DNA from: Nannocystis bainbridge
GTDB taxonomy: Bacteria > Myxococcota_A > Polyangia > Nannocystales > Nannocystaceae
Direction of reading: 5' to 3'
DNA: 64,000 bases
Assembly (NCBI RefSeq): GCF_028368995.1
Contig: NZ_JAQNDL010000001.1
Location: 384,001-448,000, forward strand
Shown here: piece by piece, positions 29,133-39,168 of the stretch
Layout of the letters: every line of letters begins with the position of its first letter
How positions within the stretch are numbered: position 1 is the first letter of the stretch
Notes under the pieces: generated by a model
Database searches by the model: none
Told to the model about the DNA's origin: nothing
What the model saw: the letters and a program-made list of their open reading frames with translations, nothing else
Made by a program: the position numbers and the translations under genes

Positions 29133-30821
<1,689 letters not shown>

Positions 30822-30868
30822 GCGCGGTGATGACACGCGCGCTCGGCCGGGCGGTTACACTGCCCCGC

Positions 30869-31645
30869 ATGTCGAACGCACCGCTCGCGCTCATCACCGG
30901 GGCTGGCCGCGGCATCGGTCGCGCCGTCGCCGAGGCGCTCGCGCCGAACCACACCCTCCTGCTCGCCGGCCGCGACCGCGACGTCCTCGCGCGCACCGCC
31001 GCCGAGCTCGGCGCTCCGCACGGCGCCCACGTCCTCGGCGTCGACCTCGGCGAACCGGCCGCTCGCCGCTCCTTCCTGTCCGAAGTGACAGGTCTCGAAG
31101 GCCAGCTCGGCGCGCGGGTCCAGGTCCTCGTCAACAACGCCGGCGCCGCCCACTCCGCCCCGCTCGCGCGCACCGGCGACGACGACTGGGCCCGCCTGTT
31201 CGAGCTCAACTGCACCGCCCCGTTCGTCCTGACCCGCGCCCTCGTGCCCGGCATGATCGCCGGCGGCTGGGGCCGGATCGTCAACGTCGCCTCGACCGCC
31301 GCCCTCAAGGGCTACGCGTACACGGCCGCCTACTCGGCCAGCAAGGCCGGTCTGCTCGGCTGGACCCGCGCCCTCGCCGTCGAGCTGGCGGCCAAGGAAG
31401 TCACCGTCAACGCCGTCTGCCCCGGCTTCACCGACACCGACATCGTCGCCGACGCCGCCCGCAACATCCAGGCCACCACCGGCCGCAGCGAGGACGACGC
31501 CCGCAAGGCGCTGGCCCGCTTCTCGCCGCAGGGCCGGCTGCGCAGCCCGGCCGAGGTCGCCGACCTGATCGCCTGGCTCGTGCGCCCGGGCGCCGGCGGC
31601 GTCACCGGTCAGGCGCTGGCGATCGACGGCGGCGAGACGGCCTGA
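30869..31645 (+). CDS. Short-chain dehydrogenase/reductase
   Basis: TGAGRGIG, NNAG, YSASK, VCPGFTDT. Confidence 0.94.
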   Translation: MSNAPLALITGAGRGIGRAVAEALAPNHTLLLAGRDRDVLARTAAELGAPHGAHVLGVDLGEPAARRSFLSEVTGLEGQLGARVQVLVNNAGAAHSAPLARTGDDDWARLFELNCTAPFVLTRALVPGMIAGGWGRIVNVASTAALKGYAYTAAYSASKAGLLGWTRALAVELAAKEVTVNAVCPGFTDTDIVADAARNIQATTGRSEDDARKALARFSPQGRLRSPAEVADLIAWLVRPGAGGVTGQALAIDGGETA

Positions 31646-31725
31646 CCGAAGGGCCAGGTCTCGGCCGCAGCCCGTGCCCGCCGCGCCAACGGCAGCTCTG
31701 CCCGCGCCTGCCGGCGCACCAGCGG

Positions 31726-31818
31726 GCGCCTGTACGATCGCACATGCACGAAGGGGCAGGTCCCGAAGTACCTGCCCCTTTCGCCATGGCCCGAGGGACA
31801 TGCCCTCGCGGACAGCCG
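31726..31818. repeat. 14-bp-period array, 7 units
   Basis: Cores at 31729, 31743, 31757, 31771, 31785, 31799, 31813; an extra pair at 31641/31655. Confidence 0.9.
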
Positions 31819-31831
31819 CGATCAGCCGCGA

Positions 31832-33295
31832 TCAGCCGACCTTGTCCCAGCCCTTCTTGATGTTCTCGCCGACCATCTCGTCGCCGATCTTGAGCGCCTC
31901 GCCGAGCGTCGGCGCCAGCCGGACCTCGCGCTCGAGCGGCGTCTTGCGGCCGGCCGAGAAGTCGGTCCAGTGGACCACGAAGGCCGGGTAGTTGGGGTCG
32001 GCCTTGTCCTTGTTGGTGCGCCAGATGACGAGCTTGCGGACCGCCTGCTGGCCCTTCGCGCTCTTGGCGTAGACCTCGCGGCGGATCACCTCGGAGGCCG
32101 GCAGGACCAGGCGCTCGGCCTTCTTGTTGAGGCTGTCGATCTGGACCCGCTCGAGCACCTGGGCCACGCGGATGTCGACCGGGTTGACGGTCTTGTCGCT
32201 GCGGATGCGCGAGAACACCGGGTGGAGGATCGACACGCCGGGCATCTCCCGGATCGTGCGCCAGCCGGTCTGCGAGTGCTCGAGCACCATGCGGAGGATC
32301 GGGTCGCCGCTCGAGTCCTCGCCCTGGATGTCGGTGACCTTGACCTCGATCACCGTCTCCGGTGGGACGAACCGGTACAGCGCGCCCTTGCTGTTGGCGT
32401 AGCGGTAGTTCGACGCCACGGCCTTGCCGGACATCTGCTGGTAGAACGACTTGCGCTGCTCGGTCGGCATGTTGCCGCAGGCGCCGATGACCTGGAACTG
32501 GCCGTCGTCGCGCATCATCGCCAGCAGCAGCGAGCCGACCGCCTCGGGCTCGTCCGAGCTGTCGGTGTAGCCGATGATCGCCGCGTCGATGTCGATCGTC
32601 GGCTTGAGCTTGAAGACCAGGTTGTCGGCGGTGCGGACCACCAGGCCCTCGCCCTTGCCGCCCTCGACCCACTCGTTCCAGCGCTGCATGATCTGCTCGG
32701 CGCCGGTCGCAGCCTCGGTCTTGATCGCCTGCAGCCGCTTGCCGCCGGCCAGCAGCCGCTGGCACAGCGCCAGGCGGTCGACGTACAGCGGCGGCCGCTG
32801 CGGCGCCTCGGCGTCGCCGCCGTGCAGCACGTCGAACGCGAAGTACGCCATGCGCTCGACCTGCGCCTGCGCCTCGCCGCCCATCGCCGACCCGAGGTCG
32901 CCGACGCGCGGCCGGCCCTGGCCCGGCGCCTTGGCGGCGAACAGCTCGCCCGCCAGCACCGTGCGGCCCTGCTTGCGCCCGAGCGCCGCCTTGGCCTCGA
33001 GCAGCACCGGCACGTCGCCCGAGACCACGCGGCCGGTCGGCGAGCACAGGATCGCCTGCTGCTCGTCGAGCACCAGGAACCACAGCTCGCCGTCGACCTT
33101 CGGCGACACCTGCAGCACGCCCGGCGGGACCGACCCGCGGGCCAGGTCCTCGAAGGGCAGCGCGCGGTAGCTGCCGGCCACGGCGCGCTTGTAGTTGCGG
33201 AACATGGCCGCCAGCTCGGTATCGAGCAGGCTGCCGGCCGGGCTCTGCTTGCCCTTGCCGAGCGGACGGGCGCTGTCGGTGGAGAACAGGCTCAT
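31832..33295 (-). CDS. ATP-dependent DNA-ligase-fold protein (adenylation + OB) with C-terminal WGR-like domain
   Basis: Motif I KVDG, III LAGEL, IIIa FAFDVL, IV GEGLVV, V FKLKP, OB GSLLL, VI HPVFSRIRSDK; ends ENIKKGW. Confidence 0.85.
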   Translation of the reverse strand: MSLFSTDSARPLGKGKQSPAGSLLDTELAAMFRNYKRAVAGSYRALPFEDLARGSVPPGVLQVSPKVDGELWFLVLDEQQAILCSPTGRVVSGDVPVLLEAKAALGRKQGRTVLAGELFAAKAPGQGRPRVGDLGSAMGGEAQAQVERMAYFAFDVLHGGDAEAPQRPPLYVDRLALCQRLLAGGKRLQAIKTEAATGAEQIMQRWNEWVEGGKGEGLVVRTADNLVFKLKPTIDIDAAIIGYTDSSDEPEAVGSLLLAMMRDDGQFQVIGACGNMPTEQRKSFYQQMSGKAVASNYRYANSKGALYRFVPPETVIEVKVTDIQGEDSSGDPILRMVLEHSQTGWRTIREMPGVSILHPVFSRIRSDKTVNPVDIRVAQVLERVQIDSLNKKAERLVLPASEVIRREVYAKSAKGQQAVRKLVIWRTNKDKADPNYPAFVVHWTDFSAGRKTPLEREVRLAPTLGEALKIGDEMVGENIKKGWDKVG

Positions 33296-33320
33296 GAAAA
33301 TCTCCGGTCTGTCCGAAAGG

Positions 33321-34025
33321 TCAGGTGGCCGGCGCGCCCGGGGCGCGCAGCTCGAGGTTCGAGAGGTGGAGCAGCAGCTTGTACTTCTGGCCGTCGACGC
33401 GGCCCTCGAGGAAGCCGCGGTACGGCGTGCCGTTCTCCTGGAAGATCAGCGGATCGCGGCCCTTGCCGCCGGCGCCGAGCAGCGCCATCTCGCCCTTGTC
33501 GTGCAGCTCCTTCGCCATCTTGAACAGGAAGTCGAACGACAGGCCGTCGACGTGCTTGATCTGGATGGTGCGGCGGAACGCGAACTTGGTGACCACCTCG
33601 GCCTTGGGCAGCCGCCGCGGGGTGAACCGCACCGGCGACTCCTTCTCGTTGGTGTTGGCCGGGATGTCGGCCGCCGGCTTGCGCTCGCGCTCGGCCCCGT
33701 CGGGCCCGAACAGCACGTCGACCAGCCTCGGCGAGGCGTGCAGCACCTCGCCCTTGCTCGACAGGAACACGGTCTGCGTGTCGCCGACGACCTTGCCGAC
33801 CTGCTCGATGTCGATCTCGGGGTCGCCGTCGATGAGCGCCTGCGCCAGGTCGCCCGGCAGCGCGCTGAGCTTGCCGAAAGTGCCGGCCTCGGTGGTCGCC
33901 AGGTAGCGGCGGAACTCGAGCTTCTTGCCGGGCACGCCGGACACCGGCCCGACCTTCTCCTTGACCGACTCGAGCGCGAGCGTGGCGTCGCGCTTCTCCT
34001 CGTTCATCAGCTGGATCTTGCGCAT
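33321..34025 (-). CDS. Uncharacterised protein, possible divergent Ku-like protein B
   Basis: GGAG RBS, strong GC3; C-terminal half (F..L...AKEL.DKG.MAL...RGFLE.R.DG...LLLHL) resembles the Ku core by eye. Confidence 0.6.
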   Translation of the reverse strand: MRKIQLMNEEKRDATLALESVKEKVGPVSGVPGKKLEFRRYLATTEAGTFGKLSALPGDLAQALIDGDPEIDIEQVGKVVGDTQTVFLSSKGEVLHASPRLVDVLFGPDGAERERKPAADIPANTNEKESPVRFTPRRLPKAEVVTKFAFRRTIQIKHVDGLSFDFLFKMAKELHDKGEMALLGAGGKGRDPLIFQENGTPYRGFLEGRVDGQKYKLLLHLSNLELRAPGAPAT

Positions 34026-34047
34026 GGCTGTCTCCCTGACCTGTCCC

Positions 34048-34650
34048 TCAGAACATCTCGAAGTCGAGCTCGTCACCGTCGTCGTCGCCGCCCGGATCGT
34101 CGGCCACGGTGGTCTGCAGCTCGCACCACTCGCTCACCGCCGGCGAGCCCACCAGCGCGAAGTAGGCCCCGCCGTTGCACACGAGGTAGGCCAGCTCGGT
34201 GTCGTAGCCGCCGCGGTAGCTGAACACGAAGCGGAACACCTTGCCGCCGCGCAGCTCACCCTCGAGCTTGGGGTCGAGCCCGTTCGGGTCGAGCGTGTAG
34301 ACCGAGCGCACCGCGAGGTCGAGCAGCTCGCCCGGATCGATCGGGCCCTCGAGCTTCTGCGCCTCGCCGAGCGTGCTCGGGATGTGCGGCAGCGGCTTGC
34401 CGTCGCCGTCGAGGCCGACCAGCTTGCCGTTCGGGATCCACGCGTTGCCCTCGTCGAAGTAGCCCTGCGCGGTCATGCCCGAGCGGATCAGCAGCGTGCC
34501 GTCGCGCGACAGCTCGGCCCGCTCGCAGCGCTGCTCGTGAGGGTCGAGGATCTGGCGCTGACGCTTGCCGTACAGCTTGGCGCGGTCGAGCTTCTCGTGA
34601 TCGAAGGTCGACTGCACGCCGCCCCAGTTGACGATGATCGGTTTCGCCAT
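34048..34650 (-). CDS. Uncharacterised protein, possible divergent Ku-like protein A with acidic tail
   Basis: KLYG.R.R, QGY, IDP...Y.L.P, L..GKV..F..R...A.L pattern like the Ku beta-barrel; ends DDDGDELDFEMF. Confidence 0.62.
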   Translation of the reverse strand: MAKPIIVNWGGVQSTFDHEKLDRAKLYGKRQRQILDPHEQRCERAELSRDGTLLIRSGMTAQGYFDEGNAWIPNGKLVGLDGDGKPLPHIPSTLGEAQKLEGPIDPGELLDLAVRSVYTLDPNGLDPKLEGELRGGKVFRFVFSYRGGYDTELAYLVCNGGAYFALVGSPAVSEWCELQTTVADDPGGDDDGDELDFEMF

Positions 34651-35074
34651 AAGTGCGAGGGCCCAAGCGGCCGCCAAGCCTTATCCGACCGGCCGCGCAG
34701 CCCTGTCAAGCCGAGCGTTCTGCCAGCGCGAACTCGCGCTGCGCACTACTGCCCATCGACATCGCGACAGCGGCCCGCTGCACCGCGGATCCGCATCCTT
34801 GTACGCGCAATCGAGCGAGACCCTGCCAGCGCCGTCACGTTCTGATCTCGAGCAGATCATGAACCGGCCGCGCCGATCTCCTTCGAGCCCCCGGTCGGTC
34901 GACCGCGAAGGCTCCACGGACTCGTCAGCTCGAGCGTGCAATCACCTGTCCCGAGGGACAGCACGACCCTCGGCTCGGATGCCGTCGAAGCCTCGCGAAC
35001 CTTCGACCGTGAGCAGAGCGACCGCGCCCTGGTCGGGGCCCGCGATCGCGCGTAGGGTCGCCGGCAAGAACCTT

Positions 35075-35713
35075 ATGCGTCGATCCCTTCATGCATACCT
35101 GTCCGTGACTCTGACGCTGTTCGCCTGCGGCCCCGCCAAGCAGAGCGACAGCGACACCACCACCGGCCCCACGAGCACCTCCACGACCTCGTCGTCCGGC
35201 ACCGCGAGCACCACCTCCTCCTCCTCGACGTCGCCCACCACGACCGGCGAACCGCTCACCACTTCCTCCTCCGGGACCTCCGACACCGAGGCAGCGACGG
35301 ACAGCGGCACCCCCTCGAGCTCCGAGCCCACCGGCACCGAGGTCACGAGCACCACCGGAGCGCCGGCGGGTGATTGCAGCGATCAAACGAACCTGGATGA
35401 CTGCCACGCCATCCCCGGCCCGGGCGGCCACTCGGACTGCGTGTGGGTCGAGACCGTCGCGCAGTGGAGCCCGGACACCGGCTGCGAAGTCGTCGCCGGG
35501 CCGGCGCACTGCGTCCAGGGCTTCTACGTCGGCGATGGCTGCTTCGGCAGCGGCTGCCCCGATCTCGAGCGCGTGTACGTCCGCGATCAAGGCGACGGCA
35601 ACTTCGACGTCGTGAACCACCCCGGCGGCTCCTGCGGCGTCGAGCCCGACGGCTGGGAGCAATGCAGCACCGAGTTCCCCGAGCTGCCAGAGGCTTGCGG
35701 CTGCGTCTGCTGA
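35075..35713 (+). CDS. Ser/Thr-rich, Cys-rich lipoprotein
   Basis: LFAC lipobox, S/T linker, Cys-rich C-terminal domain ending CGCVC. Confidence 0.78.
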   Translation: MRRSLHAYLSVTLTLFACGPAKQSDSDTTTGPTSTSTTSSSGTASTTSSSSTSPTTTGEPLTTSSSGTSDTEAATDSGTPSSSEPTGTEVTSTTGAPAGDCSDQTNLDDCHAIPGPGGHSDCVWVETVAQWSPDTGCEVVAGPAHCVQGFYVGDGCFGSGCPDLERVYVRDQGDGNFDVVNHPGGSCGVEPDGWEQCSTEFPELPEACGCVC

Positions 35714-35758
35714 CACTGCCCTGGCGCTCTCGAGGCTCTCTTGCGCTACGCTCGAACC

Positions 35759-36091
35759 ATGCCTGGCGACGCTCCCGACATCCACGTCATCCTCATGACC
35801 TGTCCTCCCGACCAGGCCGAGAAGATCCTCCTCGCGCTGCTCGAGCGGCGCCTCGTCGGCTGCGGCAACATCCTCCCGCAGGTCCGCTCGCGCTACTGGT
35901 GGGACGGCCAGATCTGCAGCGACGACGAGGCCCTCGTCGTCATGGAGACCACCCCCGATCGCCTCGACGCCCTCTACGCCGCGATCCCCGACGTTCACCC
36001 TTACTCCGTCCCCAAGGTCGTCGCGCTCCAGCCGAGCGCCTGCGGCGAGCCTTACCTGCAGTGGCTGCGCGCTGTCACGCGGCCGGGCTGA
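35759..36091 (+). CDS. cutA: Divalent-cation tolerance protein CutA
   Basis: LLERRLVGCGNI, S.YWWDG.I, HPYSVP, YLQWL. Confidence 0.92.
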   Translation: MPGDAPDIHVILMTCPPDQAEKILLALLERRLVGCGNILPQVRSRYWWDGQICSDDEALVVMETTPDRLDALYAAIPDVHPYSVPKVVALQPSACGEPYLQWLRAVTRPG

Positions 36092-36095
36092 AGCC

Positions 36096-36527
36096 ATGGT
36101 CGTGCTGTTCACCATCCTCGGCGTCCTCGCCGATCTGCTGATCCAGATGTTCACCCTGCTGGGGACCGGGGCCGTCGTCGCGAGCGTCGTCCGCGGCTTC
36201 TCGGCCGAGGATGGCGTGCTCCTCCTCCTGTTCCTCGCCGCCACCATCGGCGGCCACTGGATCCTCCTCCGGCGGATCCGCGCCGGACGGCGCACCGTCG
36301 CCACCGCGCGGGCCGGCAGCGAGGAGGTCGGCACGCGCACCGCCGGGCACTTCGTCACCGACGCGCTGCTCATCCTCTGCCTCGCGGCGATGCTCCGCAC
36401 CATGCAGGAGCCGCCCTGGGAGACTGCCGAGCGCGCCGGAACGATCGCCATGCTCGTCGCCTGCATCGTGCTCTGCGGCCTGCGCGTCGCCTTCGTGCGT
36501 CGGGACCCGGATCCCGACCTGATGTGA
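36096..36527 (+). CDS. Membrane protein
   Basis: Four hydrophobic segments. Confidence 0.65.
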   Translation: MVVLFTILGVLADLLIQMFTLLGTGAVVASVVRGFSAEDGVLLLLFLAATIGGHWILLRRIRAGRRTVATARAGSEEVGTRTAGHFVTDALLILCLAAMLRTMQEPPWETAERAGTIAMLVACIVLCGLRVAFVRRDPDPDLM

Positions 36528-36723
36528 GGAGGCAGCAGTTCCAGAGCTTGAGGCCGTTGCTCGCCAGCATTCGGCGCGCGCAGGCAACGAGCCAGCGATC
36601 CACTCATCGCGGGGTCGCCGTTCCGACCCGGCCTTTCGTGTCGCTGCGATGCGACGCGCCGGAGCGCTGACGGTCCGCAGCGCCCGGTCGCTCGCGTGCG
36701 AGGCCGCTACGAGCCCGCCGCTC

Positions 36724-39168
36724 TCACCTGCCCGCGCGCGCCAACTTGCGCGCGCAGGCTACCAGCGCCAGGTAGCAGCCTGCCCCGATCGCCATCGTCG
36801 TCGAGATGCCCCACGTCATGGATGTCCCGAGGGCCAGGCCGCTCGCGCACACTCCGAACGCCCCGTTGATGCCCCACAGCCACGGCGTCACCGCGTGACC
36901 GCCTGCCCTTTCGACCAGGCGCAGCCCCAGCGGGAAGCAGATGCCCATCCCCACCGCGGGCGGCGCGATGAGGGCGATCGACAGCAGCACGCGGATCGTC
37001 GTCTCGGCGCCGGCGAAGTTCTCCGTCACCGGGCCGGTCGCCAGCCGGGCCGCCACCACCATCAGCGCCGGGATCAGCGGGAACAGCCACGCCACGGCCC
37101 CTCCGCGCTCGACCGCCAGCTTGCCGCTGAGCAGGCTACCGATGCCCGCCGACAGGATGATGCCGCCGAGCACCACCGCCAGCGACAGCGTCGGGTGGCC
37201 GACGAACACCCCCACCTGGGACAGCAGCGCGATCTCGACGAACATGAAGCCGAGGCCGATCAGCGCGAAGTAGGCCAGCGCCGCCGCCAGCGTCGCCGGG
37301 GCCAGCCCCGTCGTCGGCTCGCTCGCTCGGCTCACCTCGGTCTGCGCCGGCCGGGCCACCAGCGGCCCGAGCAGCGCCGCCAGCGTCAGCAGCAGGCTCA
37401 CCAGCGTCGCGTACACCAGCGTCTGCGTCGCCTGCAGGTTGCCGAGGAACCCGAGATCGAGCTCGCTGAGCTCCTCCTGGCCTTCGAGCCAGGTGCCCGG
37501 CTTCAGCATGTTGAAGAAGAACGGCCGGTCGTCGGTCGGCGGCGTCAGGTCGAGCGTCTGGCGCTCGGCCCACTGCCACAGCGTCGCCCGGTCTTCGATC
37601 GCCCCCAGCTCCGCCAGCAGCGGCTGGGCTGGCAGGCGACGCGGCGTCAGCACCATGTTGACGCCGATCCGGACCGCCTCGCGCTGCATCAGGTCGAGGT
37701 CGTCCGCGGTGAACGGCGTCGGCGAGACCAGCAGCGTCGCCACGCTCTCGACCTGCAGCAGCAGCAGGTGCGCGCGCGGCTTCTCGACCCCGAGCTGCCA
37801 CAGCGCCTCCATCGCCAGCGCCACCATGCGCGCCGTCTCGCCGGGCGACTCCTTCTTGTACCAGCGCGACACCGTGAACACCCCCGTGGGTGCCAGGCGG
37901 CGCAGGAACACCAGCCAGCCCTCGACCGTGTACAGCCCGTTCTCCGACAGGCTGTACGCGCCGGCGCCGGTCGAGGCCCACGTGTCGATCAGCGACATCG
38001 TGATCACCTCGTACTGCCGGTCGTCGCGCGAGAAGAAGCTGCGCGCCTCGTCGGTGTGCAGCTCGACGCCCGGGCGCGCCGCGATGGTCGAGAAGTCCGC
38101 CATCGACCGCCGGTGCAGGTCGACGATCGCCGCGTTGAGCTCGACCCCGACCACCGGCGCGTGGCCGCTGCGCAGCGCCGCCAGCACGTCGCGACCGCCG
38201 CCGACCCCGATCACCGCCGCTGGCCCGTGCGGGCGCAGGCGGTGGGCGAACGTGCTGAGGTCCCAGTCGAGGTACGCGTGATCCGAACCTGCCCCTTCGG
38301 CCATCAGCGTCGCCGCCGCGCCGTCGATCTTCAGCACTCGCTGCTGGATCGGCGCCCGCGCCTCGAGCGGCATGTTGCGCCCCGGCGCCCACAGGTACGG
38401 CGGCAGCGCGATCTGGGTCCCGACCGTCACCCGCGAGTGCGTGTTCCAGGCCACGTGCATGAACTCGCGCGGGTCCTCGCGCACCCCCTTGACCCACGCC
38501 GGGCGCAGCGGCGGCGCCTCGGCGGCCGCGTTGAAGCCGGCGAACCCCAGCAGCGCCAGCGTCAGCGCGCCACATGTCCCGAGGGACCTGCGCTTTTCGC
38601 CAGGGTCTTCGTCACATGTCGCAAAGGCCAGGGCGCCGAGCGCCGCGATCGCCCCGACCACCAGCACCGCGCTGGCGGCGTCGACCACGTCGAGCAGCGG
38701 GATCACCAGCCCGCAGCCGGCCGCCGCGCCGAGCAGGTCGCAGCCGTAGGCGCGGCCCGGAGGCAGCCCGGCGCGCGTCAGCGCCAGCGTCAGCGCCACC
38801 CCGGCGGCCGCGAACGGGACCGCCAGGGCCGCGCCGAAGCCGAGCAGGGCGAAGAAGCCCATCAGGTCGATGACCGGCAGCAGCGGCCCCGACATCGTCC
38901 ACGCGACCGCCAGCGGGGCCAGCGCGGCGAACAGCGCCGAGCTGCGGGCCAGCCGGCGCATCACCGTCGCCTGGGTGAACCGGGCCGGGCGCATGAACAC
39001 GTAGATCGAGCCCGCGGTCATGCCGAGCATCGCCAGCGCGATGACGAAGAACGACAGGTGGTACCACGCGATCACGCTGGTGATGCGGGTCAGCAAGATC
39101 TCGAGCGCGAGCGTCGAGCCCGCGACCAGGGCGATCCCGGCGTAGAGGAAGAACGAGCGCATCGGCAT
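36724..39168 (-). CDS. Membrane-embedded spermidine-synthase-like SAM-binding protein
   Basis: TGATG overlap with the acylase stop; TM blocks flanking IGVGGGRD/GVELN; SENGLYTVE, TDDRPFF, WGING. Confidence 0.85.
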   Translation of the reverse strand: MPMRSFFLYAGIALVAGSTLALEILLTRITSVIAWYHLSFFVIALAMLGMTAGSIYVFMRPARFTQATVMRRLARSSALFAALAPLAVAWTMSGPLLPVIDLMGFFALLGFGAALAVPFAAAGVALTLALTRAGLPPGRAYGCDLLGAAAGCGLVIPLLDVVDAASAVLVVGAIAALGALAFATCDEDPGEKRRSLGTCGALTLALLGFAGFNAAAEAPPLRPAWVKGVREDPREFMHVAWNTHSRVTVGTQIALPPYLWAPGRNMPLEARAPIQQRVLKIDGAAATLMAEGAGSDHAYLDWDLSTFAHRLRPHGPAAVIGVGGGRDVLAALRSGHAPVVGVELNAAIVDLHRRSMADFSTIAARPGVELHTDEARSFFSRDDRQYEVITMSLIDTWASTGAGAYSLSENGLYTVEGWLVFLRRLAPTGVFTVSRWYKKESPGETARMVALAMEALWQLGVEKPRAHLLLLQVESVATLLVSPTPFTADDLDLMQREAVRIGVNMVLTPRRLPAQPLLAELGAIEDRATLWQWAERQTLDLTPPTDDRPFFFNMLKPGTWLEGQEELSELDLGFLGNLQATQTLVYATLVSLLLTLAALLGPLVARPAQTEVSRASEPTTGLAPATLAAALAYFALIGLGFMFVEIALLSQVGVFVGHPTLSLAVVLGGIILSAGIGSLLSGKLAVERGGAVAWLFPLIPALMVVAARLATGPVTENFAGAETTIRVLLSIALIAPPAVGMGICFPLGLRLVERAGGHAVTPWLWGINGAFGVCASGLALGTSMTWGISTTMAIGAGCYLALVACARKLARAGR

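Follow-up and report, generated by a model that had tools for sequence, protein, structure and literature searches.

A three-gene locus of Nannocystis bainbridge encoding two proteins of predicted Ku fold and a linked ATP-dependent DNA ligase

Bacterial NHEJ (non-homologous end joining) is taught as the work of a Ku homodimer and the multifunctional ligase LigD, and it is regarded as absent from most bacteria. We analyzed a trio of adjoining genes, here called A, B and C, which occupies positions 31832-34650 of a 64-kb stretch of Nannocystis bainbridge DNA (the window; contig NZ_JAQNDL010000001.1, positions 384,001 to 448,000). A first-pass annotation, made from the letters of the window, had proposed that the trio encodes two different Ku-like proteins and a ligase. 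On the evidence of predicted structures, conserved ligase residues and gene linkage, we consider that the trio most likely represents a new module for DNA end joining, composed of a structurally Ku-like heterodimer and a ligase.

The pair formed by the bacterial Ku homodimer (PF02735) and LigD is the obvious point of comparison. Like that pair, the trio encodes a protein of predicted Ku fold next to a ligase of the LigC/LigD type (PF01068 plus PF04679), some of its members carry Lys-rich DNA-binding tails, and its distribution among bacteria is patchy. Unlike that pair, it has two different subunits, neither of which is seen by the Ku profile, its ligase is devoid of polymerase and phosphoesterase domains and ends in a WGR-like domain, and protein A has an acidic tail ending in LDFEMF. 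Eukaryotic Ku70/Ku80-Lig4 resembles the trio in other respects. A and B are predicted to form a heterodimer of two diverged Ku-fold subunits, many of their structural matches are Ku70/80 chains, and A ends in an acidic, hydrophobic-tipped peptide that brings to mind the C-terminal motif of Ku80. In contrast to Ku70 and Ku80, A and B have no vWA or SAP domain, measure only 200-234 amino acids (aa) and show no sequence likeness to them; ligase C, for its part, is unrelated in architecture to Lig4/XRCC4.

A large, uncharacterised cluster of bacterial ligases with the architecture NT-OB_2-WGR has been described in delta-proteobacteria and Planctomycetia (Williamson and Leiros 2020, PMC7470946). 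In these proteins, as in C, an ATP-dependent core is joined to a WGR-type domain. According to the portions of that paper covered here, their OB domain is OB-2 (PF14743) and their WGR domain is recognized by Pfam, whereas C has PF04679 and no Pfam WGR; because the OB types differ, C and the NT-OB_2-WGR ligases would be different families. Ku-like partners are not mentioned for these ligases in the same portions of PMC7470946. Judged by the defining profiles, the trio lies outside Pfam Ku, LigD, LigC and Pfam WGR (PF05406). Full-text literature searches found no description of it, with the limit that supplementary data were not covered and the ligase network of PMC7470946 may hold the C family. 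Ku evolution was surveyed in 2025 by means of sequence searches, and such proteins are not mentioned in the sections of that survey that we drew on (PMC11936186).

The features of the trio, in window coordinates, are as follows.

34048..34650, minus strand: gene A, 200 aa, predicted acidic Ku-fold protein, isoelectric point (pI) 4.56
34051..34116, minus strand: acidic C-terminal tail of A, aa 179-200, ending in LDFEMF, a candidate partner-recruiting peptide
33321..34025, minus strand: gene B, 234 aa, second predicted Ku-fold protein
31832..33295, minus strand: gene C, 487 aa, ATP-dependent DNA ligase
32591..33115, minus strand: nucleotidyltransferase domain of C, approximately aa 61-235, with the motif I lysine K66; PF01068 stretch 63-224
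32141..32542, minus strand: OB domain of C, approximately aa 252-385, with motif VI at R363-K368; PF04679 stretch 252-368
31835..32110, minus strand: basic, WGR-like C-terminal domain of C, aa 396-487, pI 9.7 (family median 9.3)

Predicted folds and pairing of proteins A and B

Both proteins belong to large families. At an expectation value (E) of ≤1e-3 we found 904 homologues of A and 1255 of B, some of them in genomes of about 50% G+C. For B, a profile search returned 546 representative clusters (50% identity) at the same threshold from 1.84 billion representatives, and the best 150 of these 546 matches were listed. Mean column identity is 62% for A and 65% for B (59- and 61-row alignments, respectively), and members from different phyla are 50-60% identical. 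Every family member that bears a name is called "hypothetical", and neither protein matched a Pfam, NCBIfam, PADLOC or PHROG family or the sequence of a solved structure. The two do not resemble each other in sequence either (hhalign probability 0.4%). That they differ strongly from each other and from canonical Ku, as the first-pass annotation had remarked, is upheld by this comparison and by the absence of Pfam Ku matches.

Resemblance to Ku appears when predicted structures are compared. In the AlphaFold2 models of A (predicted local distance difference test, pLDDT, 75; 59-row alignment) and B (pLDDT 67; 61-row alignment), the beta-rich cores are confident and a long, poorly defined segment follows the first two strands. 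We searched 350,542 chains of the PDB with both models using Foldseek. The five matches of A at E≤1e-3 are all bacterial Ku, led by those of B. subtilis (9vnq_A, 6.5e-5) and M. tuberculosis (9i91_A, 9e-5), and of the 39 listed rows 38 are bacterial Ku or chains from entries that contain Ku70/80, the exception being INTS13-INTS14. With B, 68 matches were obtained at E≤1e-3, again led by M. tuberculosis Ku (9i91_A, 1e-5); its list of 37 rows consists entirely of bacterial Ku and of chains from Ku70/80-containing entries. The best Ku matches of A and of B have a Foldseek probability of 1.00, and the alignments span about 200-250 columns, which is nearly the whole of either protein. Since the B model had 0 matches at E≤1e-3 in a library of viral structures, it does not behave as a promiscuous query. 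From these models we regard a Ku fold as highly probable for A and for B; the likeness is one of fold, and homology to Ku is a separate matter. The likeness comes solely from the predicted structures and is detected by no sequence or profile method.

The short patterns that had been quoted in the first-pass annotation as a Ku core are present in the proteins: A contains GY, IDP..VYTLDP and GKVFRFVFSYR, and B ends in LLLHLSNLELR. The acidic tail of A, with 9 acidic and 0 basic residues, is conserved most strongly at its tip. Among 59 sequences D196 and F197 are invariant, L195, M199 and F200 occur in at least 90%, and the last six residues of the family read LDFEMF, LDFDMF or DFDFEF. In the monomer model the tail has a pLDDT below 50.

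Complex prediction supports the heterodimer that had been suggested at the outset. Three runs of A with B gave interface scores (ipSAE, interaction prediction score from aligned errors) of 0.75, 0.80 and 0.81, compared with 0.00 for the best of 3 controls. Each prediction contains approximately 330 contacts, partner pLDDT does not fall below 76, and 84% or more of the contacts recur between runs. For comparison, 58 of 80 solved complexes and 2 of 110 mismatched pairs attained the same ipSAE mark, a calibration that applies only roughly to A and B, whose alignments were self-built. The contacts pair core strands (A 110-117 and 159-176, for instance, meet B 145-150 and 215-226), and the low-confidence arms (A 21-87; B 17-45 and 82-110) also touch the partner chain, as in the contact of A 31-33 with B 103-104. 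In the predicted complexes this pattern is as expected for an intertwined dimer of the Ku type. A unit of two subunits is supported independently by the co-occurrence of A and B in the same genomes of the phylum: among 61 genomes, B is present in 11, and A was found in the same 11 and as one contig-end fragment.

Ligase C and its WGR-like C-terminal domain

Protein C matches the OB domain family PF04679 with an E of 2.7e-9 and 37.8 bits, over the Pfam cut-off of 27.5, and the nucleotidyltransferase family PF01068 with an E of 1.5e-5 and 25.2 bits, just below the cut-off of 26.2; the latter domain is annotated on many homologues. There are 791 homologues of C at E≤1e-3. Nucleotidyltransferase motifs I, III, IIIa, IV, V and VI and an OB-like region had been noted in the first pass, and an alignment of 42 relatives bears them out. 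Invariant residues are K66, D68 and G69 in motif I; G116 and E117 in motif III; E216, G217 and R221 in motif IV; K229 and K231 in motif V; and R363, R365, D367 and K368 in motif VI. F154 and D155 of motif IIIa are conserved in at least 90% of the same relatives. When the family profile was compared with the PDB, all 26 distinct solved sequences at E≤0.01 were DNA ligases (best match 9dfa_A, 9.1e-9), and C also matched the ligase family phrog_114 (E 8.4e-13). Because its catalytic residues are invariant and its solved relatives are all DNA ligases, C is very probably a catalytically active, ATP-dependent DNA ligase.

Among NCBIfam families, C comes closest to LigC and the LigD ligase domain, with scores far below the cut-offs of either: NF006078 (LigC) scored 57.5 bits (E 1.1e-15) against a cut-off of 296, TIGR02779 (LigD) 45.3 against 227.75, and NF004628 28.8 against 895. 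A weak match to the Pfam RNA_ligase family was also recorded (E 6.2e-4). Neither Pfam (E≤1) nor NCBIfam gave evidence of a polymerase (PolDom) or phosphoesterase (PE) domain, in agreement with the first reading of the sequence. In this respect C resembles LigC, the stand-alone NTase-OB ligase of Actinomycetota and Agrobacterium, to which it is also closest by NCBIfam score. It differs from LigC by that low score, by additions specific to its own family, namely a conserved N-terminus of 60 residues and a basic, WGR-like C-terminal domain of 90 residues, and by its obligate linkage with A and B.

The C-terminal domains of 52 family members were compared with ten aligned WGR domains that came from genome hits. 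The hhalign probability was 76.9% (P 2.1e-5, score 32.3) over 43 columns only; 40 column shuffles scored at most 12.2, and the reversed alignment scored 15.4. The alignment lays pGRK-PL-REVRLAP...A..IA..M...NIKKGW of the ligase family onto GRiG...g....k.f.s...A...a.klv.ek.kKGY of WGR. In a search of the ESM Atlas, a WGR cluster first appears at rank 17, with a score of 0.75. These comparisons suggest a real but partial likeness to the second half of WGR, and we refer to the domain as WGR-like, outside PF05406.

Distribution, variants and competing readings of the trio

Relatives of B were found in at least 484 genomes in a scan that took one genome per species. We surveyed the 80 best B loci, a sample that is biased toward the kin of the query and whose bins are possibly contaminated. 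In 75 of the 80, drawn from several phyla, all three genes share a strand, and 72 show the order A-B-C; the co-occurrence called for by the first-pass annotation is therefore found. Gene order is permuted in two loci (L077 and L081), and a third (L065) has a 2.6-kb gap containing Ns. Three of the five loci without the full trio are at contig ends (L022, L056 and L080), and the true misses are L023, without A, and L059, without C within 6 kb. Clustering of all flanking open reading frames (ORFs) in the 80 loci revealed no fourth conserved gene, the next recurrent cluster being generic Ser/Thr kinases at 29 loci.

Phylum labels were available for 72 rows: 51 Myxococcota, 8 Pseudomonadota, 5 Acidobacteriota, 3 Planctomycetota, 3 Actinomycetota, a Flavobacteriaceae bin and another bin that bears an archaeal label. 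In the tree of B, rows from outside Myxococcota are nested among Myxococcota rows. The archaeal label belongs to L022, a 2670-bp contig binned as Methanobacteriota, whose B and C group with gammaproteobacterial and Flavobacteriaceae copies in the B tree; a binning error is more likely than an archaeal carrier. Within the genus Nannocystis, one copy of the trio is present in each of the 10 other genomes searched. It was found in 12 of 15 genomes of the family and in 0 of 10 genomes from ten other families of the class. Collections of 50,697 phage records and 72,556 plasmids, and the IMG/VR contigs, yielded no relatives. An origin from a mobile element was considered and rejected for want of evidence, the phage, plasmid, IMG/VR and viral-structure searches all being empty.

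Of the 61 phylum genomes, 10 have a canonical Ku recognized by Pfam, and only one of the 11 B-bearing genomes, that of the window, has both. Pfam Ku was found in 0 of 5 carriers from other phyla, genomes whose completeness is uncertain. The trio is thus mostly independent of canonical Ku.

Several variants depart from the simple three-gene form. Three of 120 listed homologues of the ligase (P0336, P0340 and P0353) have their adenylation domain interrupted, between motifs I and III, by a TIR domain (PF13676/PF08937), and at one locus with a TIR-bearing ligase (L055:4813-6927) the A and B genes are kept upstream. A 7.1-Mb Myxococcota genome of about 50% G+C (G018) carries 14 complete A-B-C trios on contigs 1 and 3 (loci L101-L115). 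The repeated unit measures approximately 5.45 kb (for example L101:8151-13600), its copies are 82-98% identical in nucleotide sequence, and, with contig 1 treated as a circle, most of them fall inside a region of about 0.9 Mb. The ligase in this genome is fused to a C-terminal classical AAA ATPase (PF00004, 1e-41) in an ORF of 1091 aa; a 137-aa ORF precedes A, and some copies are followed by a gene for a Fic-domain protein. Genes for an ISL3 transposase and an SNF2 helicase are found close to these trios.

Other variants concern tails and appended domains. Long histone-H1-like C-terminal tails rich in Lys, Ala and Pro are found on some members of the B family, P0361 (HC2, 7.7e-16), P0362, P0375 and P0383, and on the ligases P0340, P0346, P0353, L041 and L055, and KKKA tails occur on some ligases; Lys-rich tails are known on canonical bacterial Ku. 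In P0382 a SAM (sterile alpha motif) domain follows B. A single protein of 381 aa, P0369, joins a full B domain to the WGR-like domain, with no ligase catalytic domains, which could hint that B and the WGR-like domain cooperate or could be an artefact of assembly or deletion.

We favor, with a probability of roughly 0.55, the reading that the trio is a minimal module for end joining or break sealing, in which a Ku-like heterodimer ring binds DNA ends and brings a dedicated ligase. A and B would then belong to the Ku structural class as far-diverged members, and together they would make a heterodimeric ring, similar to Ku70/80, able to load onto DNA ends. C would act as the dedicated ATP-dependent ligase, probably recruited to the A/B ring and possibly through the acidic LDFEMF tail of A; in other systems, the C-terminal motif of Ku80 recruits DNA-PKcs, and SSB also has a C-terminal partner-binding peptide. 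The basic WGR-like domain of C probably senses the break and is a plausible receptor for the A tail. Since the trio has no polymerase or nuclease, and hence no end processing, the module would rejoin only clean, ligatable ends. Closure of the ring around DNA, end binding, the roles of the A tail and of the WGR-like domain, and a function in double-strand-break repair are all steps that we infer. Three observations favor a cellular repair role: the trio is part of the conserved core of Nannocystis and present there in one copy, its sequence shows strong conservation across phyla, and no relative turned up in the phage and plasmid collections searched. A bolder form of this reading, which we advance tentatively and rate below even odds, would make the trio a third kind of prokaryotic end joining: an ancient Ku branch that is unrecognisable by sequence and obligately heterodimeric, the first bacterial ring in the style of Ku70/80, with a break-sensing ligase of the WGR type recruited via an acidic peptide, much as Ku80 recruits its partner, and rewired to immunity in some lineages, for which the TIR insertion, the AAA ATPase fusion, the Fic neighbor and the 14-copy genome would be the signs.

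A number of results weigh against end joining by a Ku-like ring, and they bear on the rival explanations in different ways. Every sequence and profile test for Ku was negative. Pfam Ku matched 0 of 59 members of the A family and 0 of 61 of the B family at E≤10, and a search of the whole genome with PF02735 found only the canonical Ku on contig 2, neither A nor B. In hhalign comparisons with 10 canonical Ku sequences, A scored 14.1 and B 12.6, against shuffle maxima of 20.7 and 23.1; PDB sequence searches with the single proteins and with the profiles of A and B found no Ku; and ESM Atlas features gave B a best score of 0.79. The fold comparison that the first-pass annotation had recommended came out in favor of Ku, which Foldseek retrieved for both models; the profile scores stay within shuffle noise. 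The structural evidence itself has weaknesses. Foldseek TM-scores (template modelling) are about 0.43 and root-mean-square deviations 7-13 Å, with models of middling confidence, although a low TM-score might be expected because the flexible arms were modelled in the monomer. The A:B complex may have passed by mirroring the likeness to solved Ku dimers instead of real binding, and A is an acidic protein in an acidic family (median pI 4.4). It could be, then, that the Ku resemblance is a coincidence of modelling and that A and B form a beta-rich heterodimeric accessory or regulator of the ligase, one that does not encircle DNA. The failed sequence tests, the middling pLDDT and TM values, the acidity of A and the fact that the presumed ring-arm regions are the least confident parts of the monomer models all speak for such a coincidence. 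We nevertheless think it improbable: two proteins unrelated in sequence each retrieve Ku, and almost nothing else, from the PDB chains searched; the hhalign alignment of A with Ku, non-significant as it is, still places GYFD, VY.L.P and GK.F.F..YR on KGYEY, Y.L.P and GKVA..R..R of Ku; and linkage to a ligase is a hallmark of Ku context.

Further objections concern function. The genome of the window already has a classical Ku-LigD pair on contig 2 (L001:865-3548), consisting of canonical Ku (PF02735, 1.7e-44) followed by LigD with a 3′-phosphoesterase domain, and a second end-joining system needs a reason. The WGR-like label given to the end of C in the first pass is only half supported, by the 43 aligned columns and not by Pfam, since PF05406 matched 0 of the 52 C-terminal domains at E≤10 and found nothing on full-length C, on its 112-aa tail or on 120 listed homologues; a genome-wide search detected six WGR domains, none of them in ligase C. 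RNA-library contigs, described below, offer no proof of transcription. Finally, some variants (the TIR insertion, the AAA fusion, the Fic neighbor and the 14-fold presence in G018) suggest conflict systems more than simple repair. The trio could accordingly be a module for biological conflict, whether anti-phage or anti-plasmid defence or protection of host DNA, in which the Ku-like ring would sense free DNA ends, those of invaders or of damaged host DNA, and the ligase, joined in the variants by TIR, AAA or Fic effectors, would respond to the signal. TIR insertion in ligases, including the one that keeps A and B beside it, and the diverged copies with their AAA-fused ligase and occasional Fic gene speak for this explanation, and the patchy distribution over phyla, with non-Myxococcota rows nested among Myxococcota, and the variable flanks with no conserved neighbor agree with it. 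We consider it unlikely on balance. Defence islands are typically variable in presence, unlike this trio, a single copy of which was seen in all 10 other Nannocystis genomes searched; no PADLOC-DB 2.0 defence family was matched by A, B or C at E≤1; identity of 50-60% between phyla implies strong purifying selection and not the divergence of an arms race; and the trio has ordinary neighbors (SDR, CutA1 and Ser/Thr kinase genes) in the window and no relatives on phages, plasmids or viral contigs. Quite improbable, in our estimate, is action on nicks, gaps or RNA, with the A/B ring as a sliding platform or loader, as PCNA is for Lig1, or as a binder of structured RNA. The WGR domains of PARP proteins recognise nicks and 5′ phosphates, which counts in favor of that idea, as do a ligase free of end-processing domains and the weak RNA_ligase match of C. 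WGR domains also serve in RNA binding in other proteins, according to the portions of PMC7470946 covered here. The OB domain, on the other hand, is of the DNA-ligase type and scores over its cut-off, the solved profile matches are DNA ligases in 26 of 26 cases, the best NCBIfam similarities are LigC and the ligase domain of LigD, and the Lys-rich tails resemble those of DNA-binding Ku.

If the preferred reading, a Ku-like ring with a dedicated ligase, is true, bacteria would possess a second end-joining system that is structurally related to the first and invisible to sequence searches. With the trio in at least 484 species genomes, and most of the carriers sampled lacking a recognisable Ku, the set of bacteria credited with the ability to rejoin double-strand breaks would be altered. 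A and B, with 434 aa in all, would offer a small model of a heterodimeric Ku for asking why the eukaryotic Ku is a heterodimer, and a compact ligase with a possible break-sensing domain could serve genome editing in bacteria without NHEJ. A link between the sensing of DNA ends and conflict systems is made testable by the variants with TIR, AAA and Fic.

Gene boundaries, expression and neighborhood

According to the ORF list of the window, the three genes are all on the minus strand and follow one another head to tail, separated by 22 nucleotides (nt) between A and B and 25 nt between B and C. The tightly spaced, co-oriented arrangement reported in the first pass is exact in its span and in the lengths of 200, 234 and 487 aa. 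These lengths depend on the starts chosen. For A we used the ATG that gives MAKPIIV, a start common to 58 aligned homologues, and not the TTG of the longest ORF (209 aa); for B we used the start that gives MRKIQL, likewise common to homologues, and not the GTG of the longest ORF (251 aa). That the genes are genuine, and did not arise as antisense artefacts from high G+C content, is shown by their many homologues, some of which are in genomes of about 50% G+C; the window itself has approximately 72% G+C, in a genome of 11.05 Mb. The G+C fraction at third codon positions is 0.96 in A and 0.99 in both B and C, as compared with 0.90-0.97 in four neighboring genes. It resembles that of the neighbors, and the codon usage is therefore native, as had been claimed from the start.

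Four runs recorded as RNA, which stem from three studies, contain close relatives of the operon (90-99% alike). Positions 31863-34596 are spanned by a contig of 2734 nt and 32297-34362 by another of 2095 nt; in the other two of the three studies, short contigs cover A, B and C. Cover is zero at 31700-31803 in all four runs and nearly absent at 34612-34800, where a small residual depth remains in two of the four. As contigs, these runs show presence and not strand, ends or level, and the libraries possibly contain DNA. The contigs fit a three-gene transcript and prove none, with the uncovered flanks as a weak hint. We found no Rfam family within 30000-37000, no promoter at the trio in a consensus scan and nothing notable in a repeat search of the locus. 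A single terminator-like site lies near the trio, a number at the level expected from shuffles. The arrangement TTGACA-18 nt-GATAAG at 34709-34680, 5′ of A, was picked out by eye; it fails the rule of the scan and is not taken as evidence.

The neighbors of the trio in the window are ordinary chromosomal genes. On the 3′ side of the trio lie convergent genes for a Ser/Thr kinase and a short-chain dehydrogenase (SDR), and on the 5′ side a divergent Ser/Thr-rich ORF is followed by a CutA1 gene. The divergent ORF (34628-35713, plus strand), which has no Pfam match at E≤0.001, begins with a lipoprotein-like signal, continues with a long stretch rich in Ser and Thr, and has a Cys-rich C-terminal part. 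Among the matches listed, the nearest public relative of the genome is Nannocystis pusilla Na p29, whose protein B is 96% identical.

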